DNA of 64,000 nt from an uncultured Gammaproteobacteria bacterium (GTDB lineage: Bacteria > Pseudomonadota > Gammaproteobacteria > JAURND01). The position numbers were made by a program, and so were the translations under genes. The stretch lies in assembly GCA_963714975.1 (NCBI GenBank), contig CAVQQD010000002.1:352001-416000 (forward strand). Direction: 5' to 3'. A model generated the notes under the pieces. It was not told where the DNA came from, did not search any database, and worked only from the letters and a program-made list of their open reading frames with translations. Of the stretch, positions 27,023 to 45,125 are shown piece by piece. Each line of letters starts with the position of its first letter. Positions within the stretch are counted from its first letter, which is position 1.

Positions 27023-30000
27023 TTAGAAGGAGGCATAGGAGGTAGTGCCTGTTGCCGTTGCGTTATCTCGTTTATTTTCTGCTATCTTTTTCAACACCCA
27101 ATCAATAGTATTTGAAAGATGAGGGTCCAGGAAGTAATTAGGTATTTGGGGATGACGCAAGGCATTACCTTCTGTTATTGCCTTGCGCAACCATGCGAAA
27201 AATTTTATTTGTTCTTCATTTGATACGTTATTGTCATCAAGCATTTGATTAAAATTTTCTTCTTTTTTTCCATTGGCTAACGCAGAAAGAAAATGATTTG
27301 CTAACTGATACGTCAACGGCGCATTTTCCTCTAATAATATTCTTTCGCCTTTCATGCTGTGCCACAGCGTAAATATATCTGCTTCATTTATGGGTTGTTC
27401 TGAAGTGCAATGACCCATTAAATTTTTTAATGAACCATTGCGCTGCAATAACCATGCTAATGAAAATGGGTCAGGTTCTGTTTGCGAGATATTAACCACT
27501 GTATTAATAAATTCATTATATATTATATGCAGGTCGGATAAGTTTAGGTTCTGCAGTAAACTGCGCCCATGGATTAAATTATGCTGTAATGCGTCTAAGC
27601 GATCATGTGATCCTTTCGAATAATAACATTTTAATACTTGAGCAGTAAAATACATGCATCCTTGCTTAGAAAACGTGCGAAGAGTGGATGTGATTTTCTT
27701 AGTATCGACTGAAGTAATATCTTCTTCATGTTTTATTGCTGTAATAAAACGCCGGATTGCGGTTAAATTTTCACTAAATTTCGGCAAGTTATCTTTGGAA
27801 TCTTTTTGGAAAAATGTCGTCGAACTGGTAGAACTACTCCTTCTCCTGATACTAGAGGGAGTTGTTTTAGCATCTATTGGGAGATTGGATGGTGAATAAA
27901 TTCCTCGTAATCCAGCTTCTATAGAAGCTCTTCTTTCCCTGCCACCATCAGGAGTGCTTCTAGATGCTATCGGGGGAGGAGTAACTGAATAAAGCTTTAA
28001 GGAATCGGATTCTGTAGACTTTTTTCTAGAAGTAGCTGTAGTTCTTCTTCGTTTTATTTCTTTTCCATCGGTGGACTGCAATGAAAAAGATTTAGTTCGC
28101 GGCTTTTCGGTGTGCGAAGCTAAGAAACAGTTTTTCACAGTTTCATACGTCGAACTGTATGCTTTAAGTTCATTAGATATTGATTTTAATTGTGACTCCA
28201 CGAGAGAGCAATTTTTAAAGATAATTTTAGTTTGTTGCTCATTAATCGCTTGTTTTTTTAATTTATCCGCATTTTCAAGAATTTTAGTTGTATCTCGTAA
28301 AAATTTTATATAATCATTGTGATAAGGAGAAGTGCTATGCTCGTTTGGCATAAATTCCATTCTACTATCTGAAATTTTTTTTGCTAGAGTAGCATACTCT
28401 TGCTCGGTATCTTTTATTATTTTTATTAAATCATTGATTTTTTCCTGCGGCACGGTTTTTTCCATAGTGTCGATTTTTTCTTTCTGCGAGTCATTCAATG
28501 TGGAAGAGGGTGGTGACGAAGATGGTTGCACCGAAGTTTGATCTATATCATCGGATGGAAGAGGTGGTTCCTGTGTTTTGGACTCTCGTTTAGGTGTCGG
28601 TTTTTGTTCAGTGGTTCTTGTCTCTTGCTGAGGGTTATGTTGTTTAAGGTTGGACTTATTTTTAGATTTATTTGAAAAACAAAAGTATATAAAAGCGCCT
28701 ATCCCTGCCACTACTATCAATAGGGGAACGAAAATAAAGGTGTTTTCATTTTTTGAAGTCTGGTGCTCGCTAGTTTCACCACTGTTAGGCTCAATCTGTG
28801 GATTTTCATGACACAGAAAGCTTGAATTCCTATGTGTATCGATATAATTTTCTGTCAAAGGAGTTCTATAGCGATTCACAGATTGGTCGCGTTGTGTTTC
28901 AGCATAATTCTTTAGTAATTCAATCATAGGTACTGCAATCGTAGGAGGACGTCCAGAGAATTGAAGTATACCAAGCGCTGTTTGGTCTTTCTTATTTTTT
29001 TTGTTAATAATATATGGATTTTTTCTTATTATTTTTTTAATAAAATCAACATTATGAAATAACACTGCCAGATGCAAAATAGTATCTCCGTTGTTGTTTT
29101 GTACGTTAAGATCGATCCTGTCATCAGCTAATATTAATTTAGTGATAGCTATCCTATTAACAGTTTTTACAGCATAAAATAACGCAGTTTCGCCAACATT
29201 ATCTTGCAAATTAATGTCCGTTCGAGTATTCCTTAGAATTGATTTTACTATGTTTTTTCGTCCTTTTAAGACAGCAAACATTAGTGCCGTCTGACTCTTT
29301 TTATCTTTTAGATTAGGGTTTGCACCTTTTCTCAGTATTTTTTTTATAATATCATGGGAAGCAGAATATATAGCTGCATGTAAAAGCGTATTTCCATGCC
29401 CATCTTTCAGATCTAGGTTAATTCTTTTATCATCTAACAACAAGTTAACAATATCTAAATCTAGATCTAGATTGTTTAATTTCAAAGATACAAATATAGC
29501 AGAGTGGCCATTGGGGCCAAGGATATTGATGTCAGTATGAGATTTATTCAGGAGTAGTTCTATTATGCCCCTATGTCGTTTTATAGTAGCATATATTAGC
29601 GCCGTAAAATCCATGGTATCTTTTAGGTTAGGATCAGCGCCTTTTTCCAATAATTTATCCACAATGTTTAAGTAACCATAATTTGCTGCCATCATTAATG
29701 CTGTCTCTCCTCTATTATTTTGTTTATTAATATCAGTGACTTGTTGTTCTAGTAGGTCAAAAACGATTTTTGGTTTATGATCTTCAAGTGCCTGCATTAA
29801 GGGGGTATTTCCCTTTTTATCTTCTGTTTTCGTTGATTGTTGTTGCGCATCTACTGTAGAAAAGAAGTAAGTATGTGTAGCAACAGCCAATGGTCTAATG
29901 CGCTCAGAGGGGTAAGTAGACAACTTGATGAGTTTGTTTTTTGTACGATAAATTAAGTGATCTAATGCGGCGTTAGTTTTATTCAGTAAGGTTGATTGCT

Positions 30001-30376
30001 TCACCCAGGTAATACCCAATAGGGGAAGAGAGATAGCTATATTTTTAGGGAAGGGAGACGTAGGGCCGTTAATATAATGCTTGATCCCATGTAAGCAATT
30101 GATACATAACTCGGTATCCCAGTAATCCGGTGTACGTGCAATATAATCTTGTAACGCCGTTATTAGATGTTTTACTGCGACATCATCGTTTTTTTCTATC
30201 TGGCCGTTACCTGCTATCGTATAATATTCGGAGAGTTCATCAGCGACAAATTCAACTAAAGGTTGCACATCTTCAGCGGTTAAATCTTCATTTTCCTTCA
30301 AAATAAATTTTTGTAGCTTGAGCTCATCTTCGCCGCTTAGTATAAACTTAAAAGTTGCAGGTTCACTATCTTGCAT
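27023..30376 (-). CDS. Large ankyrin-repeat membrane protein, candidate effector
   Basis: About 9 ANK repeats (GNTPLM, GETALM, GNTLLH, GETALF, GDTILH), TM helix FIFVPLLIVVAGIGAFIYFCF, coiled coil and S/T-rich region. Confidence 0.88.
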   Translation of the reverse strand: MQDSEPATFKFILSGEDELKLQKFILKENEDLTAEDVQPLVEFVADELSEYYTIAGNGQIEKNDDVAVKHLITALQDYIARTPDYWDTELCINCLHGIKHYINGPTSPFPKNIAISLPLLGITWVKQSTLLNKTNAALDHLIYRTKNKLIKLSTYPSERIRPLAVATHTYFFSTVDAQQQSTKTEDKKGNTPLMQALEDHKPKIVFDLLEQQVTDINKQNNRGETALMMAANYGYLNIVDKLLEKGADPNLKDTMDFTALIYATIKRHRGIIELLLNKSHTDINILGPNGHSAIFVSLKLNNLDLDLDIVNLLLDDKRINLDLKDGHGNTLLHAAIYSASHDIIKKILRKGANPNLKDKKSQTALMFAVLKGRKNIVKSILRNTRTDINLQDNVGETALFYAVKTVNRIAITKLILADDRIDLNVQNNNGDTILHLAVLFHNVDFIKKIIRKNPYIINKKNKKDQTALGILQFSGRPPTIAVPMIELLKNYAETQRDQSVNRYRTPLTENYIDTHRNSSFLCHENPQIEPNSGETSEHQTSKNENTFIFVPLLIVVAGIGAFIYFCFSNKSKNKSNLKQHNPQQETRTTEQKPTPKRESKTQEPPLPSDDIDQTSVQPSSSPPSSTLNDSQKEKIDTMEKTVPQEKINDLIKIIKDTEQEYATLAKKISDSRMEFMPNEHSTSPYHNDYIKFLRDTTKILENADKLKKQAINEQQTKIIFKNCSLVESQLKSISNELKAYSSTYETVKNCFLASHTEKPRTKSFSLQSTDGKEIKRRRTTATSRKKSTESDSLKLYSVTPPPIASRSTPDGGRERRASIEAGLRGIYSPSNLPIDAKTTPSSIRRRSSSTSSTTFFQKDSKDNLPKFSENLTAIRRFITAIKHEEDITSVDTKKITSTLRTFSKQGCMYFTAQVLKCYYSKGSHDRLDALQHNLIHGRSLLQNLNLSDLHIIYNEFINTVVNISQTEPDPFSLAWLLQRNGSLKNLMGHCTSEQPINEADIFTLWHSMKGERILLEENAPLTYQLANHFLSALANGKKEENFNQMLDDNNVSNEEQIKFFAWLRKAITEGNALRHPQIPNYFLDPHLSNTIDWVLKKIAENKRDNATATGTTSYASF

Positions 30377-30616
30377 AATCCCTACCTCACAATGGCATCA
30401 CCAAAAAATCTTGGTTTTACCCCAAAAAAAAGGGGGGGGGGCATTTTTAATAAACTAATAACAATGAGACTATACTATCATAATGTAAAGCCTGGCAAGG
30501 TTTGGAATGATGGTGTATTATACCAGTCCACCCAAGTGGCGAGCAGCTAAACATGATATTAGACATCGTCCTACTTTCAAGGTTGCAATTCGCCTTCACT
30601 ATATTTAGCAGAGGTT

Positions 30617-31222
30617 TTGCAAAAGCCCGAGCTGGTCGCTAGCAATAAAACTTTACAAGTGGGTTCGCGCACCACCGCAATGCGTACAAACAAAGCCTGT
30701 GTGCATCCCGATCTGTCGAAAATCACTGATCCTTATGTTAAAGCCTCGGTAGAATTGCAGCGCGTCTTTGGTTTGCGGCGCGAAGAATCGCTCAAAATCA
30801 AACCCCATCTGGCCGATCAAGGAAATAAATTATCATTACTCGGTTCTTGGTGTAAAGGCAATCGCAGTCGCGAGATTCCGATTCGCACTGAAGAGCAACG
30901 CCGGTGTTTAGATCAAGCCAAAGGCTTGCTACCCACGCCCAATCAATCGTTAATTCCCGAAGCTAAAAGTTATATTCAACATCGCTATGTCTACGATAAA
31001 CAATTACAACGCGCCGGCATAAAATCTCATGGCTTACGTTATGCGTATGCGCAACAACGTTATTTCGAACTCACCGGTTGGCTCGCCCCGATTGCCGGTG
31101 GTCCAAAATTTCGCGACATGAACTATACGGAACAAAATCAGGATATTCGTGCCAGGATGATACTGACCGAGGAGCTGGGACATAGTCGCATCCAAATAAT
31201 ACAAGCGTATTGTGGAAAGTAA
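30617..31222 (+). pseudogene. Tyrosine integrase-domain protein lacking its N-terminus
   Basis: FGLRREE, HGLRYAYAQ, ELGHSR...AY. Confidence 0.8.
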
Positions 31223-31350
31223 GTTGTTATGCAAAGTTACTGGAAAATAATTTTCCAACCTATTCCTATAAATTCTATACTTCTCTTCGCATGATTACCA
31301 AGAACGATACAGAATTTTTTATACCACAACGTGTTTTTGTTGCTCAAATA

Positions 31351-31519
31351 CACGCTGCGATGCAATTTTTTGATCACCTAATTTTTTTCTAGATTGAGGT
31401 TTACTTAAACTATCTCGATTGATATGCTACTTTCCTTGCGTTTCATTCTTAATCCCCAGATTAGCTATTCGCTGCGGCTCCAATCCAATGAACACGATAA
31501 CAAAAAAGGAGAGCACCCC
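31351..31519 (+). repeat. Upstream region duplicated before both kinase genes (copy 1; copy 2 at ~33579-33741)
   Basis: Shared ctgcgatg.aattttttga...ggtttacttaaacta.ctcgattgatatgctac...ttcttaatccc.agattag. Confidence 0.85.
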
Positions 31520-33337
31520 ATGTCATCACAAACTAAACTGGAAACCAAACCCAAATCACCGACCCAGCTGATTCGACCGGATGGTGCTACAACAGTATTC
31601 CTTAACATTCCCTACAGCGAGTTATCTTTTGATGATAAAAACCAGCCCTTAGGCAAAGGTGTTCATGGCAAAGTATATAAAGGAACGTGGGATTATAATC
31701 CTGTAGCTATTAAGGAATATGACACGCAAGACTTTTCTGAGAAAACCCAAAGGGAAATTCGTACAGAAGCAACTGTAATGGTGCAAGCCAGCACCCAATC
31801 CGATTATTTAGTGCGGTTAAAAGGCATGAGTTTAGAGAAACCGCATTATTGTTTAGTGATGGAGTATATGCCTGGTGGTGATTTATACCATTACCTACAC
31901 AGCGATCAGGATATTTCCTGGAACATCCGGTACCGCATTGGTTTGGATATCAGCATTGGCTTGCATCATTTACACAGTAGAAAAATTTTGCATCGTGATT
32001 TAAAAAGTTTTAATGTCCTACTCGATAGCAATGGTCGTGCTAAGTTAGCGGATTTTGGCTCAGCGACCATTAAAACTTGTTCTACAGCAAGTACAAGCTT
32101 TAAAGGCACCATATTGTGGGCTGCACCTGAAACGTTCACAGATGAACCTACCCAAAAATCAGATGTCTACAGTGCTGGCATGATCTTGTGGGAACTGGCT
32201 AGTCGTGAAATTCCTTACAAGAAAGCGGGAAGTATGGCAGGGATGTGGATTATGCAAGGAAAAAGGGAAACTTTTCCACCAGATACTCCTACAGAATTTC
32301 AGGCCATAGCTGAAGATTGCTGGCAAGCCCCTGAAAAACGTCCTGAGGCTAAGGTATTAGCCAAACAACTCGATCAATTATGGCAAGCTGCTCAAAAGAG
32401 TGAAATAAAAGAAAAAGCGGCACCACCTAGTACTAGCCCCAGCTCTTCTGTTGGAAAAAAACTAAATGATGGTAGCCAATTTGCCCCTACTCAACCCATC
32501 GACATTAAGACACCTAAAAAAACAGAAGAAAAAGAAAGCATCCACTTTATGGCGCAATCCGGCCTGATGACGCATCAATCCACCGTTGCGACGCAGACCT
32601 CGACGAGCACTACCCCCTCCCTACATGCCAGTCAACCGGCATTCTTTGGTGGAGCTAGTAGCTCTTCTAGCACCACATCGAGTGAAGTCAAAATAAAAAC
32701 AGCTCCTCTGGATGAAAAAAAGCGCCAACAATTGATGCCACTACAAAATGAATTAATCATGGCTTGTGAAAATGGCAGTTTGGCGAAAGTGAAAGTCGCC
32801 ATCGCTAAAGGGGCCTTAGTGGATTTACCCAATGCCCAAGGTAAAAATCCTCTGTATTGTGCGGTGTATGGCATGAATCCTGAAGTAGTGAATTATGTCA
32901 TTGCGCAATGGAGTAAAAATGTTTCCGCCAATTCGTGGCAAGCGTGTGAAGAACACAACAGAAAATACTATGGACAAACTTTTTTAAACATGAAATTTGC
33001 GCCTGTTACTTACAAAAATTGGTATGATTTACTAGAGAAGATCAAACATAATGAATTTTTGGCGGGGTATCATCTCACACAGGCGCGGAAGTATTATCCA
33101 GAGGCTAAGAAAGTAGCAGACTTCGAGGACTTCATGATCATTATCTGGAGCGGGCAAGACGCTCAAATCGGAAGGCAGGGGCGTCATGATCAGTTGGGAT
33201 ATGCGTTCGCGTGGCAATCTCAGACTGAAAGAGGATTTGCAAGTTACCGGAATCAAATTAAGCAGGCGATGGAGGGATTACAGGCTGTACAAACTAATCA
33301 GTCAGTGAGTATGACTGGTAGTACGAGTACGAATTAG
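31520..33337 (+). CDS. Eukaryote-like (TKL-type) Ser/Thr kinase with a C-terminal ankyrin-like module
   Basis: GKGVHG, VAIK, HRDLKSFN, DFG, APE, DVYS; start MSSQTKLE with AAGGAG RBS. Confidence 0.92.
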   Translation: MSSQTKLETKPKSPTQLIRPDGATTVFLNIPYSELSFDDKNQPLGKGVHGKVYKGTWDYNPVAIKEYDTQDFSEKTQREIRTEATVMVQASTQSDYLVRLKGMSLEKPHYCLVMEYMPGGDLYHYLHSDQDISWNIRYRIGLDISIGLHHLHSRKILHRDLKSFNVLLDSNGRAKLADFGSATIKTCSTASTSFKGTILWAAPETFTDEPTQKSDVYSAGMILWELASREIPYKKAGSMAGMWIMQGKRETFPPDTPTEFQAIAEDCWQAPEKRPEAKVLAKQLDQLWQAAQKSEIKEKAAPPSTSPSSSVGKKLNDGSQFAPTQPIDIKTPKKTEEKESIHFMAQSGLMTHQSTVATQTSTSTTPSLHASQPAFFGGASSSSSTTSSEVKIKTAPLDEKKRQQLMPLQNELIMACENGSLAKVKVAIAKGALVDLPNAQGKNPLYCAVYGMNPEVVNYVIAQWSKNVSANSWQACEEHNRKYYGQTFLNMKFAPVTYKNWYDLLEKIKHNEFLAGYHLTQARKYYPEAKKVADFEDFMIIIWSGQDAQIGRQGRHDQLGYAFAWQSQTERGFASYRNQIKQAMEGLQAVQTNQSVSMTGSTSTN

Positions 33338-33741
33338 CCGACGAGATTCACCAAGGAGTGAACCGTCGCAGATAATTCGTGGCTTGCCAAAAAAATATTC
33401 TGTAATCCTGCCACGCACCAGGGCTTAAATTTGACCGCATATTGCCGAAGTCGAGAGGGACTTGTCTTTTGCTCTTTTGAGCTCGAAAATGTGCTTTTTA
33501 CTCTTCCAAAAACCGCATCCCTTCCGGCCAAGACAAGCCAAATTCGTCAACGCCAATTCTACAGGTATTGCTCCAAAGCACACTGCGATGTAATTTTTTG
33601 ACCACCTAAATTTTTTCTCGATTCAGGTTTACTTAAACTACCTCGATTGATATGCTACGTTCCTTGCATTTATTCTTAATCCCTAGATTAGTTATCTGCT
33701 GCGACTCCGACTCCAATTAATACAACAAGGGAGAGTGTCCC

Positions 33742-36420
33742 ATGTCATCACAAACCAAACTTGAAATCAAACCTCCATCCTCCACGCAACTAATTCAATC
33801 GGATGGCGCCGTGTCAATTTCTTTTAACATTCGCTACAAAGATTTATCTTTTGATAATAGAGACAATCCCTTGGGTGAGGGTGCTTATGGAAAAGTTTAT
33901 AGAGGGAAATGGGATTTTAATACCGTAGCCATTAAGGAATACACTGCACAAGATTTTTCTGAGAAAACTCAAAAAGAAATCCGTACGGAAGCTTCTGTCA
34001 TGGCACAAGTCAGTACTACGTCTGATTATTTGGTGCGTCTCAAAGGTATGAGTTTAGAAAAACCCCATTATTGTTTGGTGATGGAGTATATGGACGGTGG
34101 CGATTTGTACCATTATTTGCACAGTAATCGAGATATTTCATGGGAGGCCCGTTATCGTTGGGGTTCGGATATTTGTATTGGCTTGCATCATTTACACAGC
34201 AAAGAAATTTTGCATCGGGATTTAAAAAGTTTAAATGTGTTGCTTGACAGTAATGGTCGCGCTAAGTTGGCTGACTTTGGTATGGCAACCATTAAAGCCA
34301 GCTCTTCGGTAAGTACGAAAGGAGGTTTTAAAGGTACTTTGTTATGGGCTGCTCCCGAGCTATTTAAGCCACGTAGTAAACCCACTAAAGCCGCCGATGT
34401 TTACAGTCTTGGCATGGTACTTTGGGAATTAGCCAGTAGAGAAATCCCATTTAAAGGTGCAGGAAATATGGCGACTGCTTGGATTATGCAAGGCACCCAA
34501 GAAGAAGTACCCGAAGATACTCCCCCTGAATTTAAAACGATGATTCTCGATTGTTGGCAAGCGCCTGAAAAGCGTCCCGAGGCTAAAGTATTGGCCGGAC
34601 AGCTCGATCAATTATGTCAAACCGCTCAAAAAACTGAATTAAAAGAAACAGTGGCGTCATCGAGTACCAGTCCCAGTTCTTTTGGTAAAAAACTGAATGA
34701 TCTATTTGCCCCTATTCCGCTTATCAGCCAATTGACCCTTAAACCCATTGATATTAAGACAGCTAAGAAAACAGAAGAAAAAGAAATAGCTCACTTTATG
34801 GCGCAATCCAGCTTGATGACGCATCAATCCTCTGGTACAACACAAGTCTCGACGACTGCTCCTTCTCTACATGCCAGTCAACCGGCGTTTTTTGGCGGAG
34901 CCAGTAGCTCTTCTAGCACTTCAACCAGTGAAGCCAAAACAAAAGTAGTTCCCTTGGATGAAAAAAGTCGCCAACAATTGATGCCGCTACAAAATGAATT
35001 AATTCAAGCTTGCGAAAATGGTAGTTTAGCGAAAGTTAAGGCCGCCATTGGCAAAGGGGCTTTAGTCGATTTACCCAACGAACAAGGTAACAACCCGCTG
35101 TATTGTGCCGTGTATGGCATGAATCCTGAGGTAGTGAATTATGTCATTGCACAACTTGGTGAAAATGCTCCTGCCAATTCTTGGCAAGCGTGTGAAGAAC
35201 ATAACAAAAAACACTATGGACAAACCTATTTAAACATGAAATTTGCGGATGACTTATTGATAAAAACTGAATCCAATGAATTTTTAGCGGAATATCATCT
35301 AGTTCAAGCACGAAAAATGATGAAAGATGAGACCAATAAGCATTGTGAGACTTTTGATGCTTTCAAACAGCGGAAGAATGAGGGACGCCGTATTACGTGG
35401 TTGACCGATTATCGAGATCTCGATGGGCGGGTCACACAGATGACAGAGACGGGGTATGAAGTTTATAGAAATCAAATTAAGCAGGCGATGGAGGGATTAC
35501 AGGTGGCACAAATCGGTCAGTTGGTTGGTAAAAAACTGAATGATCCATTTGCCCCTATTCCACCCGTTGATAACAGCCACTTTTACCTCATCGATATTAA
35601 GACACCTAAAACAGAAGAAAAGGAAAGCACCCGCTTTATGACGCAATCCAGTGTGGTGACGCAACAATCCTCTGCTACAACACAAGTCTCGACGACTGCT
35701 CCTTCTCTACATGCCAGTCAACCGGCATTTTTTGGTGGAGGTAGTAGTTCTTCTAGTACTACATCGAGTGAAGACAAAATCAAAGAGGTTCCATCGGATG
35801 AAAAGAAGCACCAGCAATTGATGCCACTACAAAATGAATTAACCACTGCCTGCGAAAATGGCAGCTTAGCGAAAGTTAAGGCCGCCATTGGCAAAGGGGC
35901 CTTAGTGGATTTACCCAATGCCCAAGGTAAAAATCCTCTGTATTGTGCCGTGTATGGCATGAATCCTGAAGTAGTGAACTATGTCATTGCGCAACGAAGT
36001 GAAAATGCGCCTGCTTCTTGGCAAGGTTGTGAAGAGCACAACAAAAAACACTACGGACAAATCTTTTTAAACATGGAATTTGCGCCTGTCTATTACCAAA
36101 ATTGGCACGATTTACTGTTGAAGATTAAATCTAATGATTTTTTGGCAGACTATCATCTTAAACAGGTTCAAAAGTATTGTGATAAGAAAAACGCTGATTG
36201 GTACACAAGCTTGGAGCGATTGATAGAATGGTTGGGGCGGTGGGACCTAGTGTCACCAGGGTATTGGGTGGAGTCGATTCCTAGTTCGTGGGCTGCGGTG
36301 CGCAACACTGAGCTAGGGTACCAGGTTAACAGGAGCCAAATTAAGCAAGCAATTGAGGGGTTACAGGCGGCGCAAACCAATCAGTCAGTGAGTATGACTG
36401 GTAGTACGAGTACGAATTAG
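33742..36420 (+). CDS. Paralogous TKL-type kinase with two tandem C-terminal ankyrin-like modules
   Basis: GEGAYG, VAIK, HRDLKSLN, DFG, APE; GKKLND...QIKQA.EGLQ module present twice. Confidence 0.92.
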   Translation: MSSQTKLEIKPPSSTQLIQSDGAVSISFNIRYKDLSFDNRDNPLGEGAYGKVYRGKWDFNTVAIKEYTAQDFSEKTQKEIRTEASVMAQVSTTSDYLVRLKGMSLEKPHYCLVMEYMDGGDLYHYLHSNRDISWEARYRWGSDICIGLHHLHSKEILHRDLKSLNVLLDSNGRAKLADFGMATIKASSSVSTKGGFKGTLLWAAPELFKPRSKPTKAADVYSLGMVLWELASREIPFKGAGNMATAWIMQGTQEEVPEDTPPEFKTMILDCWQAPEKRPEAKVLAGQLDQLCQTAQKTELKETVASSSTSPSSFGKKLNDLFAPIPLISQLTLKPIDIKTAKKTEEKEIAHFMAQSSLMTHQSSGTTQVSTTAPSLHASQPAFFGGASSSSSTSTSEAKTKVVPLDEKSRQQLMPLQNELIQACENGSLAKVKAAIGKGALVDLPNEQGNNPLYCAVYGMNPEVVNYVIAQLGENAPANSWQACEEHNKKHYGQTYLNMKFADDLLIKTESNEFLAEYHLVQARKMMKDETNKHCETFDAFKQRKNEGRRITWLTDYRDLDGRVTQMTETGYEVYRNQIKQAMEGLQVAQIGQLVGKKLNDPFAPIPPVDNSHFYLIDIKTPKTEEKESTRFMTQSSVVTQQSSATTQVSTTAPSLHASQPAFFGGGSSSSSTTSSEDKIKEVPSDEKKHQQLMPLQNELTTACENGSLAKVKAAIGKGALVDLPNAQGKNPLYCAVYGMNPEVVNYVIAQRSENAPASWQGCEEHNKKHYGQIFLNMEFAPVYYQNWHDLLLKIKSNDFLADYHLKQVQKYCDKKNADWYTSLERLIEWLGRWDLVSPGYWVESIPSSWAAVRNTELGYQVNRSQIKQAIEGLQAAQTNQSVSMTGSTSTN

Positions 36421-36552
36421 CCGACGAGGTTTGAGCTCGAAAATATGCTTTTTACTCTTCCCAAAACCGCATCCCTTCCGGCCAGGATAAGCCCAATTCG
36501 CTAACCCCATGATGGATACAGCCGCTCAGTGGTTCAATGAGTAATACATTTT

Positions 36553-37950
36553 TCATGGGTAAGTTTCCTGTTGTTGGAAGGGAATGAACAGAGTGAAGAT
36601 GCTGCCTTGATTAAGTGTGCTTTCTACTCGAATTTCACCGCCTAACTCGGTTAAAAATTGTTTCACAAGACTTAATCCCAGTCCCTTGCCTTCATACTGC
36701 GCTTGATAGGAAGGAGTGAGGCGATGAAAGGGTTCAAAGATTTTCTGGCGTTGCTCTGCAGGAATACCGATGCCGCTGTCGCTTACGGTAAAACGAATTA
36801 ACCACTGGTGTTCACGTTCAGACTCAACCGCGGTTTGTAGGCGCACAAACCCTTGGGGCGTGAATTTGATCGCATTGGCGAGAACATGTAGCAAAATTTG
36901 CTGGGTGCGCAGCCGATCACCACAAACGCTGGTGGGCAGAGACTGGGTCACTTCCCAGGTAAAATGTAATTGCTTGGCTTGAGCGGTCGGCGCTAGCATC
37001 GCATAGGTGGTTTGCACCAGGGCCGGTAAATCAAAGGCCGCTTGACTTACCAGGGTCCTGGCTGTGGAGCGTACATAGTCTAAAATTTCATTGAGATGAG
37101 TGAGTAAGGCCTCAGCTGAATCCATGATGCATTGCAGACCGATTTTCCGTTCCGCATTTTCCTCGTTTAAAGCCAGGGTTTCGGTCATGGTCACCAGACC
37201 ACAAAACGGCGTCCGTAAATCGTGGCTGATATTGTGCAGAAAATCGTCTTTGGCTTGCAGGGCTTGCAACAACGCCTTTTCGGCTTCGATGCGGGCGGTA
37301 ATATCAATTGAAACGCCCGCCATTCCTACAATTTGACCGCGACGCCGCAACGGCACTTTGTGAGAGAGAAAAATCGCTTCGCGGCCATTCGGCAACAGGG
37401 CGGGCTCTTCGACAATTTGTGCTTCGCCGGTGCGCATAATGGTTTGATTGAGCGCATCTAAAGTTTCGGGTAATTGCCCGGCATTGATATTCCAGGGTAA
37501 ATCGCTATTACGTTTGCCGACAATGTCTTCACGCGAGACCAGACCTGCGGATTCGGCTTGCTGATTATTGCAGCCTAAATACCGCCCTTTACGATCAATC
37601 CAATACAAATGTTCTGGCATGATGGCTAATAAATTATCGAGTAATTCGTATTGGTCCTGCAGCGAAGCAGGGGGCGGACGCTGTCGATAGGCGAGAATGC
37701 TCCCAATCACTGCGCCACAGGTGAACATGCTGAAGATATAACCCCACACCAACCACCAATCTCGTTGCAAAAAACCGTGCCAAACAATTGTCGCTTGAAT
37801 TAGCCAAAAGCCGACAAAGGTCAGCAAGGAAACTTCTTGAGCAGTTTTTTCTTTGAGGATTTTGATAAATTGCGGAATAAACTGTAGGGCATTGATAAAA
37901 AGCGCAGAGCTCAATAACAGATCAGAAAGAGCAGGGAAGTTCAGTAGCAT
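36553..37950 (-). CDS. Sensor histidine kinase: PQ-loop (SemiSWEET-like) membrane domain, PAS, HisKA, HATPase
   Basis: FIPQFIKILKEKTAQEVSLLTF; YWIDRKGRYLGCN; NISHDLRTP; NAIKFT, DSGIGI, GLGLS. Confidence 0.9.
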   Translation of the reverse strand: MLLNFPALSDLLLSSALFINALQFIPQFIKILKEKTAQEVSLLTFVGFWLIQATIVWHGFLQRDWWLVWGYIFSMFTCGAVIGSILAYRQRPPPASLQDQYELLDNLLAIMPEHLYWIDRKGRYLGCNNQQAESAGLVSREDIVGKRNSDLPWNINAGQLPETLDALNQTIMRTGEAQIVEEPALLPNGREAIFLSHKVPLRRRGQIVGMAGVSIDITARIEAEKALLQALQAKDDFLHNISHDLRTPFCGLVTMTETLALNEENAERKIGLQCIMDSAEALLTHLNEILDYVRSTARTLVSQAAFDLPALVQTTYAMLAPTAQAKQLHFTWEVTQSLPTSVCGDRLRTQQILLHVLANAIKFTPQGFVRLQTAVESEREHQWLIRFTVSDSGIGIPAEQRQKIFEPFHRLTPSYQAQYEGKGLGLSLVKQFLTELGGEIRVESTLNQGSIFTLFIPFQQQETYP

Positions 37951-37963
37951 CGAATAGGCTCCT

Positions 37964-38716
37964 CTAAGTTAGCTTAGGTTCAACGGGAGGTAAGGACATA
38001 AAGCGTTGCGGCTTGAACTGCTTGCGCTGCTTAAACTTAATCGCGATCGGATGTAATAAATCGGGATAGCGTGGAAGTAAGAATTGTTGATGGGTATAAG
38101 TCATCGCCGCATTGCGTGGGCTGGGGTAGATTTCATAATGGCACTGCAATTCCGGCCATAAACAAAGCGCAGTGCATTCTTCCAGGACATAATCTCGGCA
38201 TAACTCTTGGGCACGGGCGTAATTAAATTGTCTCAGTATTTCAGGGGACAAACGTGGGGTGTAGCGCTGTAAAAAAGTGCGGATCGTGCTATGAATGGCT
38301 TGTTGATAGGCCGGGTATTGGGTCACTAAATAGTTGACGCGTCGAAAAGTGGCGGGATAACGCGGATGAGTTAACCAATAATCCCACTGCACTATTTTAA
38401 GCTGCGGTAACTGTTCATAAACAATTTGATTGCGCGCTAACCAGGCTGCGCCTGCTTGCTGCGTAGTCGCTACAAAATCCTCAGCTCGAAGCATAGGGTG
38501 TAGTAATGCCAGAGTATGGCGCTGCAGGGTATCATCAATTAGCAAAGTGCAGCGTGCAAATTGCTGATGCACCAAAGCTACGGTGGCCGCAAAGGGTTCT
38601 CCTTCGTGCACTTCTTGACCGACGCTAATCGTCAGTAAACAATGCGCCTGATCGAAAGGAATGGGCGCGTGAATTGCGTCGTATTTGAAAATGGGTTTGA
38701 TTTTGTTCGGATTCAT
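37964..38716 (-). CDS. tRNA-dependent cyclodipeptide synthase, XYP subfamily
   Basis: TISVGQ (catalytic Ser), HEG, IDDTLQRH, WLARN, DYVLEEC (YxxxE), EIYP (YP); start taken as MNPNKIK. Confidence 0.75.
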   Translation of the reverse strand: MNPNKIKPIFKYDAIHAPIPFDQAHCLLTISVGQEVHEGEPFAATVALVHQQFARCTLLIDDTLQRHTLALLHPMLRAEDFVATTQQAGAAWLARNQIVYEQLPQLKIVQWDYWLTHPRYPATFRRVNYLVTQYPAYQQAIHSTIRTFLQRYTPRLSPEILRQFNYARAQELCRDYVLEECTALCLWPELQCHYEIYPSPRNAAMTYTHQQFLLPRYPDLLHPIAIKFKQRKQFKPQRFMSLPPVEPKLT

Positions 38717-39064
38717 CGGCGCGTTCCTGGGTTGATGCGATAAAAGCATCGAACCAGGTAAGCGGCAGCAGAGGATTTGGGTAGGTGATGGCGAAGCGAG
38801 GAAAATACAGCGTTACTTCGCCATACCTATTCTCCTCTGCTACTCGCTTACCCCTCGTCCACTGGATGAACACCCCCCAAAAACCTGGACACTCGTACCC
38901 CAAGTCCACAACACGCCGCGGACAATCGAAGAGTTTTCATGGGGTAAAAGCTTATTGATCCAGGTATACCACTTTTGCCTAGACCAACGCCAAGTGAAAA
39001 AATGGGTGAACATCAAGAAAAGAGTTTTGCACAAACGCACATTGCGATAAGCTTCCATCGTCAC

Positions 39065-41609
39065 GTGCGCCGTGGAGGCGCTAAACATTGAGTGTGATAA
39101 CAATCATTAGGATTGCTGGAATATCCTATATCTACCCAACTTATCCTTGCCTAGTAATAGGCTGGAATCTCGAAAGAGAAAGGGGAGTGTAGCATGTTGG
39201 GAAAAGACTTCTAATTTTAGAAATTATCTATAGAAGAGAGGTCAAGATAAGACGTGTAAGGTTAAGGTTGGATTACTTGAACCCTAGTTCTGACGGTTTT
39301 TACGTACAGGCACAGACGAAAGATAATTGAAACGTCTGTTTTAAATACATAGTAATCATTGTGACGGATTACCATGACCAGTTATTTAAACGTACCCTCA
39401 TACAAGGGATACGGAACGAACGGGGAACCTAACCACGCCGCTTCTCTGGTTTAGTGTAACCATGGGATTACCTAAGTTGGTGTGAAATATAACCAATAAG
39501 GTAACGGAGCTTCCATATTACCCTGTCACTTCTGTAATGGAAGTGGCTGATTACTGGGAAAGTAATACCGACATGGTTATAAGTTGGCAGTAATGTCAAT
39601 GAAAGACCCACTGTCTGGGGGGAAGGGAAGCAGCCTATTTTTCGTATTGAAATCTTATGAGAGGCTGTGCTGATGCTAGCCGCTACTACGATTAAGAGAA
39701 TAAATACACTAGGAATATTATCTAATAAAGGGAAACGTATAAATGGTCTTTTTAGACTCATGGAGAACCCTTGTCTGTGGATGCAGGCATACAGCAAAAT
39801 CTATGCCAACAAAGGTGCCACAACACCAGGAATAGATGGAAAAACACTGGATGGATTCTCCAAGGAACGTGTTGGCTATTTGATTGAGCAGCTCAAACAA
39901 GATCATTATCGGTTTAAACCAGCAAAACGAATATATATTCCAAAAGCGAACGGTAAACAGCGACCATTAGGTATACCTTCTGGAGATGATAAATTAGTTG
40001 CTGAAGTTGTCAGGATGATTCTGGAAAGAATCTATGAGCCGATATTTTGCAAGAACGCCCATGGATTCAGGCCAGGAAAATCCTGTCACACAGCACTAAG
40101 AGATATACAACATCAATGGACAGGCATGAAGTGGATCATTGATATGGATGTTCAAAGTTTCTTCGATAATATTGACCATGCAATACTCATTAGCCTTCTT
40201 AAAAATAAGATTGATGATAAGAGATTCATCAACCTTATTGAACTAATGCTGCAAGCAGGTTATGTCGAAAACTGGAAATTCCATAAAACGTACAGCGGTG
40301 CTGCCCAAGGAAGTGGTATTTCCCCATTGCTTGCCAACATCTACTTGCACGAACTGGATCAGTTTGTGGAGGAAATCCAAGTAGAATTTAACCGAGGAAA
40401 GAAACGAGCAAGCAGGAAGAAGTATGCTTGTATATCTACCACCCTCTCAAATCTAAGGAAAAAGGTGGATAACCTGAAGCAACAGGAAAATACGGAAGAA
40501 CAAATTCAGGTTATCAAATACCGAATTAAAGCCTTAGATTTAAAACAGAAGGAAACTGTGGCACTCGACCCCCTAGACCCGAACTTTAAAAGATTACGCT
40601 ACTGCCGATATGCAGATGACTTTGTAATTGGAATTATCGGTTCCAAACAGGATGCCATTACATTGCGAGATAAAATTCAAAAATTTATCGAAGCACAATT
40701 GCACCTGAACATTGCACCTGAAAAATCTTATATAGTACATGGTCAAAAGGGGGCTAGGTTTCTAGGCTATGACATACGGATATACTCCGATGATAAAATA
40801 GTCAAAACTATCAAAGGAGGGCGTCATTGTCGTGTGAGAAGTATGACGAACAAAATGCAGTTGCACATCCCGCACGAGAAAATCAAATCGTTCTGCAAGA
40901 GTAAAAAGTACGGAAACTATGGTATAACTAAAGCACGCCATAGACCAGAGTTACTCAACCTGAGCGACGCCGAAATTGTTGAAACCTATAACGCTGAGTT
41001 ACAGGGATTGGCGAATTACTATGCCCTATCCCAAAACTACTGGGATCTAAGCAAGATAGCGTGGATCTGGCAAAAGAGTTTATTAAAAACCCTAGCAGCC
41101 AAACACAAAACCACAAGTTATCGAATATGGAAGCAGCTGAAAACACCCAGTGGTTTAGCACTCACCGTTCGCAGTCCGAAGAAAATTCGCCTCTTTAAAA
41201 TTTTCAACATCAAGGACATCGATCGTGAAACCCCCATCTGGGGGGATGTTGATCAAAAGGCCAATACGAGGAGGTTTACATGGTGTAAAACTGAACTTAT
41301 AAAGCGGCTGAACGCAGAGCAATGTGAATATTGCGGGCAGCGCGACGGCAAGTTTGAAGTACACCATATCCGAAAATTGAGCGACATTAAAGATGGAAGG
41401 AAAATGTGGCAAATAATTATGGCAAGGAAAAAGAGAAAAACTCTTGTATTGTGTACCCTTTGCCATAAAAATCTACATACTGGTATACTCCCTGACTGGA
41501 GAAATCCTACACAAAAACGGGTGGAGAGCCGGATGAATTGAAAGGTTCAAGTCCGGTTCGGAGGGGGGGTGACGGGTTATCCTACGGGAGGCCTCGCTCC
41601 CTACCCTAC
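39065..41609 (+). mobile_element. Complete group II intron (IIA / ML-like)
   Basis: 5' GTGCG at 39065; EBS1 GTGACG (39361-39366) in a gtaatc/gattac stem pairs with IBS1 CGTCAC (39059-39064); domain V gagagccggatgaattgaaaggttcaagtccggttc; 3' end ctaccctac at 41609. Confidence 0.92.
39667..41541 (+). CDS. ltrA: Group II intron RT/maturase with HNH endonuclease
   Basis: RPLGIP, HGFRPG, AQGSGISPLLANIYL, RYADD, CEYC...EVHH...CTLCH. Confidence 0.95.
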   Translation: MLMLAATTIKRINTLGILSNKGKRINGLFRLMENPCLWMQAYSKIYANKGATTPGIDGKTLDGFSKERVGYLIEQLKQDHYRFKPAKRIYIPKANGKQRPLGIPSGDDKLVAEVVRMILERIYEPIFCKNAHGFRPGKSCHTALRDIQHQWTGMKWIIDMDVQSFFDNIDHAILISLLKNKIDDKRFINLIELMLQAGYVENWKFHKTYSGAAQGSGISPLLANIYLHELDQFVEEIQVEFNRGKKRASRKKYACISTTLSNLRKKVDNLKQQENTEEQIQVIKYRIKALDLKQKETVALDPLDPNFKRLRYCRYADDFVIGIIGSKQDAITLRDKIQKFIEAQLHLNIAPEKSYIVHGQKGARFLGYDIRIYSDDKIVKTIKGGRHCRVRSMTNKMQLHIPHEKIKSFCKSKKYGNYGITKARHRPELLNLSDAEIVETYNAELQGLANYYALSQNYWDLSKIAWIWQKSLLKTLAAKHKTTSYRIWKQLKTPSGLALTVRSPKKIRLFKIFNIKDIDRETPIWGDVDQKANTRRFTWCKTELIKRLNAEQCEYCGQRDGKFEVHHIRKLSDIKDGRKMWQIIMARKKRKTLVLCTLCHKNLHTGILPDWRNPTQKRVESRMN

Positions 41610-41834
41610 GGCTATAACCTCCGGGGTTATCGTTGTGAAAGTGCCTCAAGAATGTTAGATGCATTCTTTTGGCGCGGCCTCGGAGGCGCAAGCCCCCGAG
41701 GCTTTGTCATTATTCATTGACTTTAGCCGAAATGCAAATATTTCTTAATGTCGGCTTAATTTAGTAAGTGCAATCGATGGTCCTTAGCCCCTAATTTATA
41801 TATATTGCTTTTTATACCCTTGGAGGGTATATTT

Positions 41835-42146
41835 ATGGTCTTCATAGAAACACATATATTTACAAAACAGCTTAACGATTACCTCTCAGATGAGGAATAC
41901 CGAAAGTTACAGGAATTTCTTATTGAAAATCCTCATGTGGGCGATTTAATTCAAGGCACAGGCGGGTTACGCAAGCTGCGTTGGGGGTTGGAAAATAAGG
42001 GAAAACGAGGTGGGGTAAGGATCATTTATTATTGGCAGACATTTTATAACCAAATTTATTTGATGACATTGTATGCAAAAAATGAAATGACTGATTTAAC
42101 TGCGAAAGAGAAAAAAGCACTCCAGCAAATGATAGAAAGGTGGTAA
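41835..42146 (+). CDS. higB: RelE/HigB-family toxin
   Basis: GDLIQGTGGLRKLRW...GKRGGVRIIYY. Confidence 0.9.
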   Translation: MVFIETHIFTKQLNDYLSDEEYRKLQEFLIENPHVGDLIQGTGGLRKLRWGLENKGKRGGVRIIYYWQTFYNQIYLMTLYAKNEMTDLTAKEKKALQQMIERW

Positions 42147-42148
42147 TA

Positions 42149-42472
42149 ATGGCTACACAAAAAAAGCGTAACTTATTTGAAGAGCTGAAAAGTGGCGTCG
42201 AAGAAATTAATGAACATAAAGCAGGCAAAATAACCTTACGTAACTTCACCTTTAAAAAGAAATCCAAACCCAAAGTTACTGCTAGTTTTATTCGTAAAAC
42301 GCGCCAAGAATTTCACATGTCGCGCAATGTATTTGCTCTAAAATTACGAGTGTCCCCTCGAACTCTCGAAAAATGGGAACAAGGCGAAACCACACCTAAC
42401 GATCAAGCAGCCACATTAATTTTAATGGTACACAAATTTCCTGATACTCTTAAACGCCTTGAAGAAATTTAA
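42149..42472 (+). CDS. higA: HTH antitoxin (HigA-like)
   Basis: Xre HTH MSRNVFA...RTLEKWEQG, downstream of the toxin. Confidence 0.88.
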   Translation: MATQKKRNLFEELKSGVEEINEHKAGKITLRNFTFKKKSKPKVTASFIRKTRQEFHMSRNVFALKLRVSPRTLEKWEQGETTPNDQAATLILMVHKFPDTLKRLEEI

Positions 42473-42681
42473 AATTTTTAATTTTATCTCCATTATTTTC
42501 GACTTTGGGCAAATCAAAGCCTCTTTCCACAACCTGAGCGCCAGTGCCATTATCAGCCGTATTCCAAAAAGAATTGTGAGGATATTTTCATAAATCTTTT
42601 GCTACACTTGTTAATTTTTCCTTAAGCTAGTAGACTCTCTCTGTGGTTGGGCAGTATCGCAAGTACGACAGGCCAGCCCAC

Positions 42682-42914
42682 TGTTATTCTGAGCGAACCG
42701 AAGGGCCTCCTAATAAGCGTTGTCCTGGCATGGAGGTCAGGATCCACCCACAGGGATGTGAAAGTTTCGCTTCCTACCTTGGATTATTAGTGATCAAAAA
42801 CCATCCATGGTTTTTGCCCTGCGGGTCGCTTCGCGTGGCTAATTTGTTCCTGACAAATTAGTCCTGCAGGGATTAGGAGGTCGGGGGAGGTCTTTCGCTT
42901 CGCTTAGAATGACA
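42682..42914. repeat. Nested palindromic repeat elements
   Basis: Outer tgttattctgagcgaa...ttcgcttagaatgaca; inner ctaatttgttcctgacaaattag hairpin. Confidence 0.6.
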
Positions 42915-42975
42915 AATTTGTTAGGAATTTATTGAGGAGGGAATTTAAAAACCCACGTGAAGTTATTGCAGTCCT

Positions 42976-43905
42976 ATGGCCCCTAATATTTTTACTTGTT
43001 TTATCATTGGAGAGGATAATCTCCATTTGGAATGTGCCAAAATTATCCAACAACAAGGACAGCAAATCGTAGGCATTATTTCTGCGTATGAAGCCGCAGA
43101 ACTCTGGGCCTTGCAACTGGGAATTCCCCACTACGCCTCTCTAGCAGCCGCCCAAGAAGCATTCAACAAAACTTCTTTTGATTATTTATTTAGCATCGTC
43201 AATGCACAGATTTTGCCTGCAGCGATACTCAATCTGCCTCGGCAATTGGCGATTAATTTTCATGATGCGCCTTTACCGCGATATGCCGGAGTTCACGCCA
43301 CTTCCTGGGCAATCTTAAATCAAGAACAGACCCATGGCATCACCTGGCATGTGGCCACAGAAACCGTCGATGCCGGGGATATTTTGCAGCAAGTGACGGT
43401 GCCGATTACTGAAGATGAAACTACGTTGAGTTTAAACCTCAAATGCTACGAAGCCGCACTGCAAAGCTTCCCGGATTTAGTGCAATCTTTAGCGAAGCAC
43501 AGTTATCAACGCCAACCTCAAGATTTAAGTCAACGTACCTATTTTGGCCTTCATCAAAAACCTGCTGGTGATGGTTGGATTGATTGGAATGCCAGTGCTG
43601 AAGCTACTGAGCGATTATTTCGGGCTACTCAATTTGGCTCTTATCCTAATCGTTTTACTTGTCCGAAATTTAAACGAGGGGAAGAGGAATTTATCATCAC
43701 TCAATTAGAGCTATTATCCGAGTCATCGACTGCAGCTCCTGGAACCATAGTTGCTGTTACTGCGGACTATTGGCGCATTGCAACCGCTAGTTACGACATT
43801 GCCATTCGACAGATTTGTACTTTAGAAGGTGATGCAGTCACTCTTGCAGAAGAGAGGGTGCTAGATCAAGCTTACCCCTCATCCGGCCTTCGACCATTAA
43901 TATAG
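42976..43905 (+). pseudogene. Formyltransferase domain, probably the truncated start of an NRPS initiation module
   Basis: INFHDAPLPRYAG, HGITWH, VDAGDIL; ends in sequence from the opposite-strand Fic fragment. Confidence 0.7.
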
Positions 43906-44629: not shown

Positions 44630-44702
44630 GGGGTTAAACACATTTCCAGTGTCCCTCCTTAAATATAATTGATATTGATAGCGTATGTGCTATCATTTTG
44701 AA

Positions 44703-45125
44703 ATGAAAAACATTTTAATTGATACTTGCATATTTGTATCAGCTTTAATTAGCGAGAGTGGGGCAAGCCGAGAGGTACTACGGCGCTGCCTTAACAAAAA
44801 ATATCAGCCATTAATGGGAAATGCCCTTTTTACTGAATATCAATCCCTGCTGCAGCGTGATTTGTTTAAAAATTGTCCTTTATCTGCTAATGAACGAGAA
44901 ACACTCCTGGATGCTTTTATGAGTGTTTGCCAATGGATTCATATTTACTATCTTTGGCGACCTAACTTAAGAGATGAAGGCGACAATCATGTTTTAGAAT
45001 TGGCGATTGCAGGTAATGCAAGCGCAATTATTACAAACAATGTCAAAGATTTTAAAAATGGCCAACTACTTTTCCCTGGAATTAATATTTTAAAACCAGA
45101 GCAATTATTGAAGGAGGATACTTAA
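44703..45125 (+). CDS. PIN-domain toxin
   Basis: ILIDTCIFVSAL, WRPNLRDEGDNHVLELA, TNNVKDF. Confidence 0.9.
   Translation: MKNILIDTCIFVSALISESGASREVLRRCLNKKYQPLMGNALFTEYQSLLQRDLFKNCPLSANERETLLDAFMSVCQWIHIYYLWRPNLRDEGDNHVLELAIAGNASAIITNNVKDFKNGQLLFPGINILKPEQLLKEDT

Follow-up and report, generated by a model that had tools for sequence, protein, structure and literature searches.

In a 64,000-nucleotide stretch of an uncultured Gammaproteobacteria genome (GenBank assembly GCA_963714975.1, contig CAVQQD010000002.1, positions 352,001 to 416,000; hereafter the window), two genes on the minus strand encode a cyclodipeptide synthase (CDPS) and, immediately downstream, a sensor histidine kinase whose input region combines a SemiSWEET-like PQ-loop unit with a PAS domain. 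As judged from gene content and order, this two-gene operon (36553–38716) belongs to a conserved Legionellales-type module. A sequence-only reading of the window had proposed a synthase–receptor pair in which the PQ-loop domain is the receptor, and it depended on the linkage being conserved in other genomes. The pairing stands, since in 47 of the 54 distinct testable neighbourhoods outside the window genome (those in which the CDPS is not cut by a contig end) the CDPS has a PAS domain or kinase core no more than 2 kb away, whereas the PQ unit is absent or separate in many loci and the assignment of the receptor should shift from it to the PAS domain. The pair may constitute a synthase/sensor signalling module, with the PAS domain as the receptor and the SemiSWEET-like unit as a conduit or co-sensor, a reading whose prospects we judge to be about even.

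The product of the upstream gene was matched by phmmer to the PDB chains 5OCD (E = 2.2e-53 over residues 6–230), 5MLQ (E = 1.7e-32), and 5MLP (E = 1.9e-7), and its best matches are all XYP enzymes. Its motifs are LTISVGQ (Ser31), DYVLEEC (Tyr176...Glu180), and EIYPS (Tyr197-Pro198), and Ser31, Tyr176, Glu180, Tyr197, and Pro198 are invariant in all 44 of the aligned homologues. The catalytic Ser, Tyr...Glu, and Tyr also line up with those of 5OCD in the phmmer alignment, and they correspond to S37, Y178, E182, and Y202 of AlbC, which we take to be the equivalent catalytic residues. The signature is X-Y-P, with Gln34 at the X position followed by Tyr197-Pro198, and not N-Y-H. On the basis of the PDB matches and the five invariant catalytic and signature residues, the assignment of this open reading frame (ORF) as an XYP-type CDPS is far beyond chance. 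The motifs singled out in the sequence-only reading (ISVG Ser, YVLEE, and IYP) are thereby borne out on the minus strand, as is the homology to CDPS structures that it anticipated. The reading frame could open further upstream, at 38749; the 44 homologues instead align from the Met at 38716. A Pfam search of the window CDPS returned no CDPS-model match at E ≤ 1, and TIGR04539 scored 21.2 bits, below its curated cutoff of 45. Given the 5OCD match, we read this as an insensitivity of the curated family models to the clade of the window CDPS, which may be why most of the named database relatives are labelled hypothetical proteins.

The CDPS stop codon (TAG) is followed by a 13-nt spacer, aggagcctattcg, and the AGGAG reported earlier between the two genes is found inside it. 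For the kinase, the Pfam scores of the core were E = 3.3e-10 for HisKA and E = 8.6e-26 for HATPase_c, the H, N, G1, F, and G2 boxes are intact (H-box SHDLRTP, N-box LANAIKF, G1 DSGIGI, and G2 GKGLGL), and Pfam detected neither a REC nor an Hpt domain. By its domains and motifs, the protein is a catalytically complete dimer-type histidine kinase. Its one PAS domain is the counterpart of the kinase-proximal PAS in the longer orthologous kinases, with 44–60% identity to that domain in the module-linked kinases of other genomes.

The match of the PQ-loop model PF04193 to kinase residues 8–46 is marginal (23.4 bits against a cutoff of 22), with relatives scoring up to 31.7 bits. The AlphaFold2 (AF2) model of residues 1–95 has three helices with a predicted local distance difference test score (pLDDT) of 86, and the top 10 matches of this model in a Foldseek search of the PDB are all bacterial SemiSWEETs (template modelling score, TM, 0.58–0.84; probability 1.00), at E values of about 0.01, as expected for a query so short. 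In an alignment with 19 relatives (20 sequences), P26 is present in at least 90% and Q27 is invariant; the polar residues N20, Q27, and Q52 are all invariant. Pfam, the AF2 model, the Foldseek matches, and the conserved Pro26-Gln27 are therefore in agreement with the earlier description of the kinase input as a three-helix PQ-loop domain followed by PAS. Because the loop after helix 1 is Lys-rich and the stretch after helix 3 is Arg-rich, the positive-inside rule suggests an N-out, C-in topology and hence a cytoplasmic PAS domain. A homodimer prediction for the PQ domain scored 0.09 against a mark of 0.42 and gives no verdict.

For the comparison across genomes, a first single-protein scan of genome contigs gave 68 pattern matches, none of which was confirmed, and the scan was repeated with a 44-sequence CDPS profile. 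This CDPS-anchored survey, with one genome per species, yielded 26 loci, two of which end inside the CDPS, leaving 24 testable loci. The hosts are Legionella maceachernii, Tatlockia, Coxiellaceae and Legionellales metagenome-assembled genomes (MAGs), many unclassified Gammaproteobacteria MAGs, and one Burkholderiales MAG. A PAS domain lies no more than a few hundred bases from the CDPS in 23 of the 24 loci, and the remaining one has a kinase-core fragment only. In 21 loci the kinase follows the CDPS on the same strand, and in three the two genes diverge. The orthologous kinases are mostly longer than that of the window, with the typical arrangement PQ-PAS-PAS-HisKA-HATPase-REC-Hpt (919 residues in L. 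maceachernii, for example). In the Burkholderiales MAG, CDPS, PAS, and HATPase are joined in a single 933-residue ORF (L041:9995-12796), which has no HisKA match and whose final ~260 residues are without an assigned domain. Over all neighbourhoods, the two genes are arranged as an operon, divergently, or convergently, and they are fused only in this ORF. When the neighbouring ORFs of 28 loci were clustered, no other family and no conserved tailoring enzyme recurred beside the CDPS–kinase pair, the only other multi-locus cluster consisting of antisense ORFs inside the kinase gene. Within the window's own family, a CDPS (37% identical) was found in two of the eight other genomes, in both of which a PAS kinase adjoins it; the order-level survey (nine genomes in the order) gave nothing beyond this. 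At one locus (L055:9469-13244), a PQ gene is followed by two different tandem CDPS genes, 42% and 35% identical to that of the window, and then by a PAS kinase.

In a sample of the Legionellaceae, of which 149 genomes were scored (two more were left unscored) with a CDPS threshold of E ≤ 1e-8, a CDPS was found in 30. These gave 31 neighbourhoods, three of which are the same contigs as L033, L035, and L037, and 24 of the 31 have a PAS domain or kinase core within 2 kb. The gene order tracks the CDPS score tier: the tier at 270–284 bits, which contains a protein essentially identical to the crystallised Fdum-CDPS (L146; E = 6e-155 to 5OCD), lies tail-to-tail with a PAS-PAS kinase, and the genes for longer CDPS-like proteins either diverge from a PAS kinase gene or immediately precede it. 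The seven unlinked loci comprise one member of the Fdum-like tier and a coherent tier of six at 139–153 bits. In the one locus of the latter that was examined (L161), the best solved relative is 5MLQ, a cAE-type enzyme, and this apparently cAE-like, unlinked tier serves as an internal negative control for the linkage. The distances among CDPSs and among kinases co-vary, with a Mantel r of 0.60 that none of 2000 permutations reached and that is inflated by relatedness. One Legionellaceae genome carries three tandem pairs of long CDPS-like (493–615 residues) and PAS kinase (378–471 residues) genes (L169; G085:C6:85800-99700), with overlapping stop and start codons; their interpretation as CDPS-PAS fusions was rejected, because the ORF listing gives separate overlapping genes.

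In another reading, the kinase would regulate production: the PAS domain would sense an unrelated cue, such as redox, oxygen, or a host metabolite, the operon would be controlled via a response regulator, and the cyclodipeptide would be an end product with effects on host or competitors. The cues to which PAS domains respond are diverse, and the same type of PAS kinase accompanies a second enzyme candidate, protein X (described below), as would suit a regulator that serves small biosynthetic operons in general. In the window genome, the pair is also carried along with genes for ankyrin proteins and eukaryotic-like kinases, of a kind typical for host-directed proteins, and host manipulation was proposed for the CDPSs of intracellular bacteria by Aravind et al. 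(2010; PMC2922099), the accessible part of which notes CDPSs in Legionella and Rickettsiella. A generic regulator, however, would not be expected to fuse with the enzyme, as in the Burkholderiales ORF, or to keep a SemiSWEET-like unit in 18 of the 24 loci of the CDPS-anchored survey. In addition, 21 of these loci have the CDPS ahead of the kinase within one operon, the usual layout of autoinducer synthase–sensor pairs, although this order is compatible with autoregulation too. We therefore regard regulation of production as unlikely, while taking it to be a serious competitor.

The PQ unit was more variable in its placement than the PAS kinase. Among the 24 loci, 12 have it between CDPS and PAS, one has it as part of a divergent kinase, and five have it as a separate gene of ~90 codons upstream of the CDPS; six lack it, as do 21 of the 24 linked Legionellaceae loci. 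In a PQ-anchored survey of 80 metagenome loci encoding a PQ domain (3 kb window), a CDPS was found in 20, protein X and a kinase in four, a kinase only in nine, and none of these in 47. The 47 loci without a partner include eight with at least 2.5 kb on both sides, 16 with this on one side, and 23 on short contigs. The PQ family is thus wider than the CDPS module. Where PQ is fused to PAS (11 metagenome loci), a CDPS lies beside it in eight and none in two, and one locus is untestable. By gene organization, the constant partner of the CDPS is the PAS histidine kinase, and the PQ unit is optional and separable.

These distributions bear on the possibility that the SemiSWEET-like PQ domain is itself the receptor, two such units in the kinase dimer forming a membrane pocket for an external cyclodipeptide. 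SemiSWEETs act as dimers and histidine kinases are dimers; together with the SemiSWEET fold, the invariance of N20, Q27, and Q52 in the 20 sequences, and the fusion of PQ to the kinase in the window and in 13 of the 24 loci, this makes such a pocket conceivable. Against this stand the absence of PQ from six of the 24 loci and from most of the linked Legionellaceae loci, its encoding by a small gene of its own ahead of the CDPS in five, and its occurrence with neither CDPS nor kinase in no fewer than eight metagenome loci that have at least 2.5 kb on both sides. PQ is also the least constrained part of the kinase among the paralogues (ratio of nonsynonymous to synonymous divergence, dN/dS, 0.11–0.25), and we consider it improbable as the receptor.

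A sister module was found in which a PQ gene is followed by protein X (417–468 residues), in four metagenome loci (L065, L074, L076, and L082) and two genome loci (L025 and L144). A PAS kinase of the same type follows X in the four metagenome loci and in L025, the L144 stretch stopping inside X, and a REC protein follows the PAS kinase in two of the metagenome loci. The X family comprises 449 clusters at E ≤ 0.001 and 302 at E ≤ 1e-10, and Cys62, His322, and His379 are invariant. The AF2 model of X has a pLDDT of 92.7. X had no match in Pfam, NCBIfam, or the PDB sequences; in Foldseek against the PDB, there was none at E ≤ 0.001, the top hit being an OTU deubiquitinase (E = 0.2, probability 0.35); in the wide VIA search, the best Z was 6.0, for a helical segment only; and the ESM Atlas gave no usable match. 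A search of the window genome did not find X. A relationship of X to CDPSs was rejected (hhalign against the CDPS profile, probability 0.4%), as was an X–kinase fusion at L070, where a 62-sequence X profile gave no match. Since X occupies the place of the CDPS in this module, the PQ/PAS-kinase pair looks like a receptor cassette that could be combined with different enzymes.

In the synthase/sensor mechanism that we favour, the CDPS would condense two aminoacyl-tRNAs in the cytoplasm to give a small, probably polar cyclodipeptide, and the PAS domain of the neighbouring kinase would be the receptor for this product. The PAS domain is favoured because the PAS histidine kinase is the invariant partner, is once fused to the CDPS, and has in PAS its most constrained part among the paralogues. 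The SemiSWEET-like unit, fused here and free-standing elsewhere, would serve as an inner-membrane conduit for the hydrophilic product, which would need help to pass the membrane, or as a co-sensor. Ligand binding would alter autophosphorylation of the kinase; in the relatives, the phosphate would pass via their own REC-Hpt relay, and the shortened kinase of the window would require a response regulator encoded elsewhere. The broader proposal, that Legionellales-type circuits are widespread in which a CDPS makes a signal, a SemiSWEET-like protein moves it, and a dedicated PAS kinase reads it, is tentative, and we place it somewhat short of an even chance.

Several observations weigh against the synthase/sensor mechanism. 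Seven of the 54 CDPS neighbourhoods are without a kinase. Co-divergence of the two proteins is only partial, the nearest-CDPS locus being also the nearest-kinase locus in 13 of 38 pairs, and in one genome two kinases are mutual closest relatives while their CDPSs fall in different clades. The same PAS-kinase type pairs with the non-CDPS protein X, and the kinase may thus sense something besides a CDPS product. Against solved structures, the best match of the PAS domain was the BvgS PAS at an uninformative E = 0.007. The repeated cassette that carries the pair (see below) includes no response regulator, its kinase in the window being without REC and Hpt, and the regulator that follows the module kinase in L047–L049 has a sole homologue in the window genome, which is split in two frames. 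Finally, the bacterium itself is apparently intracellular, with abundant ankyrin and eukaryotic-like kinase genes, and density sensing would be less obviously useful to it.

The window genome contains five copies of the CDPS–kinase pair and one N-terminal CDPS fragment. Both genes are intact in three copies (the window, C2:11723-13883, and C2:1227496-1229655); the copy on contig C3 has an intact kinase and a frameshifted CDPS, and in the remaining copy the CDPS is interrupted by a transposase-like ORF of 521 residues and the kinase is broken. The paralogous copies are 81–94% identical. Between the intact copies, the synonymous divergence (dS) is 0.24–0.41, and dN/dS is 0.12–0.19 for the CDPS, 0.08–0.15 for the whole kinase, 0.02–0.07 for PAS, and 0.11–0.25 for PQ. 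By this measure, PAS is the most and PQ the least constrained part of the kinase, and the values of 0.08–0.19 for the two genes indicate that both are maintained by purifying selection in three or four of the paralogues. Divergence of the paralogues into separate signal–receptor specificities is unsupported, since only two of the 40 variable positions among the 250 of the CDPS fall in columns with a conservation of 90% or more, and the substitutions there are conservative. A decayed remnant (L138; G000:C1:82010-85444) consists of a kinase fragment followed by a response-regulator gene in two frames, which is the sole homologue mentioned above of the L047–L049 regulator.

The pair is part of a repeated unit of ~13 kb (30591–43896 in the window) that contains an integrase-like gene, one or two eukaryotic-like Ser/Thr kinases with ankyrin repeats, the histidine kinase, the CDPS, and a divergent nonribosomal peptide synthetase (NRPS) (Table 1). 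The upstream repeat reaches 39053–39065 in three other copies at 89–91% identity, and a promoter and terminator scan gave sites no more frequent than in shuffled sequence. The group II intron includes an ORF for a reverse transcriptase, maturase, and HNH domain (39667–41541) and a domain V/VI match (RF00029, 41524–41609, 63.6 bits), and is missing at the equivalent site of the other four cassette copies. A full-length NRPS with the order F-A-T-C-A-T... stands beside two paralogous copies (3030 and 3006 residues; G000:C2:14772-23864 and G000:C3:802990 onward), and the three further copies are shortened to 309–608 residues; in the window, the intron and the toxin–antitoxin pair separate the NRPS remnant from the CDPS. 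The earlier remark that no tailoring enzyme or exporter is adjacent needs to be qualified in view of this truncated NRPS upstream; across loci, no tailoring enzyme is conserved.

The NRPS raises the possibility that the pair belongs to an NRPS cluster, the CDPS supplying a diketopiperazine block or the NRPS product being the real metabolite, and the kinase acting as a cluster regulator. Every cassette copy in the window genome has a formylation-domain NRPS divergent from the CDPS, two of them intact, and CDPSs are reported to be often near NRPS or polyketide synthase (PKS) genes in the accessible part of Skinnider et al. (2018; PMC5767969). In other genomes, however, NRPS-like sequence was near the CDPS in only two of 56 loci, both at least 1.2 kb from the kinase end, and in the window and two other copies the NRPS is truncated while the CDPS and kinase are still intact. 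We consider membership of an NRPS cluster very improbable.

Other elements of the cassette and its surroundings were also noted. An integrase-like gene stands at one end of every cassette copy, with homologues also at L027:4527-5393 and L055:4619-5491; in an unrelated MAG, a homologue 52% identical lies 4 kb upstream of a PQ-CDPS module. The CDPS module may thus travel on an integrative element. The second Ser/Thr kinase (33742–36420) has an internally duplicated C-terminal module, and Ser/Thr kinase paralogues are many in the genome (C2:437975-440279, C2:1119017-1120369, and each cassette copy). Positions 27023–30376 of the window encode a protein of 1117 residues with many ankyrin repeats, typical of host-associated bacteria. 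A PIN-domain protein (44685–45125) and a weakly RES-domain-like ORF (45560–46288; 17.5 bits against a cutoff of 23.2) may be further toxin–antitoxin elements beside the cassette.

Table 1. Features of the window and of the protein X loci (window positions unless a locus is named).
Feature	Coordinates	Strand	Evidence or remark
Co-duplicated cassette part: integrase fragment and two eukaryotic-like Ser/Thr kinases	30591–36457	plus	
Integrase-like fragment (Phage_int_SAM_2 + Integrase_1)	30617–31222	plus	Pfam
Two tandem eukaryotic-like Ser/Thr kinases with ankyrin repeats	31424–33337, 33742–36420	plus	Pfam
Sensor histidine kinase, 465 aa: PQ-loop/SemiSWEET-like, PAS, HisKA, HATPase_c	36553–37950	minus	Pfam and motifs
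Kinase core: HisKA (residues 233–297) and HATPase_c (residues 344–459)	36574–37254	minus	Pfam
PAS domain, residues 112–220	37291–37617	minus	PAS_4, E = 1.6e-11
SemiSWEET-like three-helix PQ-loop domain, residues 1–95	37666–37950	minus	PF04193, AF2, Foldseek, PQ motif
Spacer, 13 nt, with AGGAG ribosome-binding site ahead of the kinase start	37951–37963	minus	Read from sequence
XYP-type cyclodipeptide synthase, 250 aa	37964–38716	minus	PDB 5OCD homology and invariant catalytic residues
Upstream region within the repeated cassette, presumed promoter region	38717–39054	minus	Repeat comparison
Group II intron in the CDPS–NRPS intergenic region	39055–41608	plus	Pfam RVT_1, Intron_maturas2, HNH; Rfam RF00029
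RelE-like toxin and HTH (MqsA-like) antitoxin pair	41805–42472	plus	Pfam; insertion relative to other cassette copies
NRPS remnant, 309 aa, N-terminal Fmt-like formylation domain only	42976–43905	plus	Formyl_trans_N, Formyl_trans_C
Protein X	L065:3047-4390, L074:5275-6528, L082:5705-7111, L076:6572-7912(-)		Between free-standing PQ gene and PAS kinase, in the place of the CDPS

The status of cyclodipeptides as genuine dedicated bacterial signals has long been argued, and to our knowledge none of the reported cases has a synthase and a receptor that are linked. In culture media, diketopiperazines also arise spontaneously, according to the accessible part of PMC6152636. The module described here offers a defined pair by which the question could be settled with simple experiments. 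If the signalling reading is true, this would be the first genetically defined synthase–receptor pair for a diketopiperazine signal; many genomes would run parallel circuits, as with the five copies of the window genome and the three tandem pairs of one Legionellaceae genome; and sister circuits would use X, an enzyme of unknown fold, instead of a CDPS. The module also provides a candidate role for CDPSs without tailoring enzymes, the structurally characterised Fluoribacter enzyme included, and suggests that the SemiSWEET fold is employed, next to a sensor kinase or as part of one, in a way not reported before. Besides Lqs, a group to which parasites of amoebae and opportunistic pathogens belong may thereby have a second communication system.

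A literature search found no description of a CDPS–kinase operon or of a SemiSWEET/PQ-loop domain on a histidine kinase, although supplementary files may hold more. In the accessible part of Skinnider et al. (2018), PAS is named among the commonest non-biosynthetic domains near CDPSs and quorum sensing is suggested; the word kinase is absent from that article, and kinases are not mentioned in the portion of Gondry et al. (2018; PMC5816076) that is accessible. The sequence-only reading, which knew of no characterised system of this layout, agrees with the literature to this extent, but the presence of PAS near CDPSs had already been remarked (PMC5767969, as accessible). Within the synthase/sensor-kinase theme, the pair takes a form not described before, which a single sentence published in 2018 anticipated in part.

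As proposed bacterial signals, cyclodipeptides have been linked to LuxR- and ToxR-type sensing. For Shewanella baltica, cyclodipeptide quorum sensing via the LuxR-type receptors LuxR01/02 was proposed (PMC13220807); in the accessible part of that article, enzyme and receptor are not presented as a linked pair, whereas here the genes for a dedicated synthase and its candidate receptor lie together.

The closest solved relative of the window CDPS is 5OCD, the Fdum-CDPS of Fluoribacter dumoffii, an enzyme of the XYP subfamily that is described in the accessible part of PMC12945691 as using two Gly-tRNAs to make cyclo(Gly-Gly). The two share the catalytic Ser, Tyr...Glu, and Tyr-Pro signature, and the gene for Fdum-CDPS also lies beside a PAS-PAS kinase (L146). 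In contrast, the gene order is convergent there and operonic in the window, and the proteins are 39% identical. With the P1 and P2 pockets as defined in the accessible part of Gondry et al. (2018) and mapped from the catalytic anchors, three of the five mappable P1 positions differ (T/P, A/V, and L/M) and three P2 positions agree. Because of this identity and these P1 differences, the product of the window CDPS is not predictable from that of the Fluoribacter enzyme. Highly polar cyclodipeptides, cGG among them, escape analysis on C18 columns (Gondry et al., 2018).

With the bacterial SemiSWEET sugar uniporters (4RNG, 4X5N, 5UHS, and 4QNC), the PQ domain of the window shares the three-helix bundle (TM 0.58–0.84, root-mean-square deviation 1.7–3.7 Å) and the PQ motif in helix 1. 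It differs in sequence (18–30% identity) and in being fused to a kinase in many members. SemiSWEET sugar binding uses a Trp/Asn pair; no Trp is invariant in the 20-sequence PQ alignment.

LqsA/LqsS of Legionella and CqsA/CqsS of Vibrio are quorum-sensing pairs of an autoinducer synthase and a sensor kinase. Unlike LqsA and CqsA, the window synthase is tRNA-dependent and unrelated to them, and its sensor, unlike LqsS and CqsS, is built from a SemiSWEET-like three-helix unit and PAS and not from a multi-helix membrane receptor. The window locus, in contrast to the Lqs and Cqs systems, has no cognate regulator, and its role in signalling is a proposed one. As in both systems, however, the gene for a small-molecule synthase adjoins that for a membrane histidine kinase, and the relatives of the window kinase carry REC-Hpt relays, like the hybrid kinases of quorum sensing.

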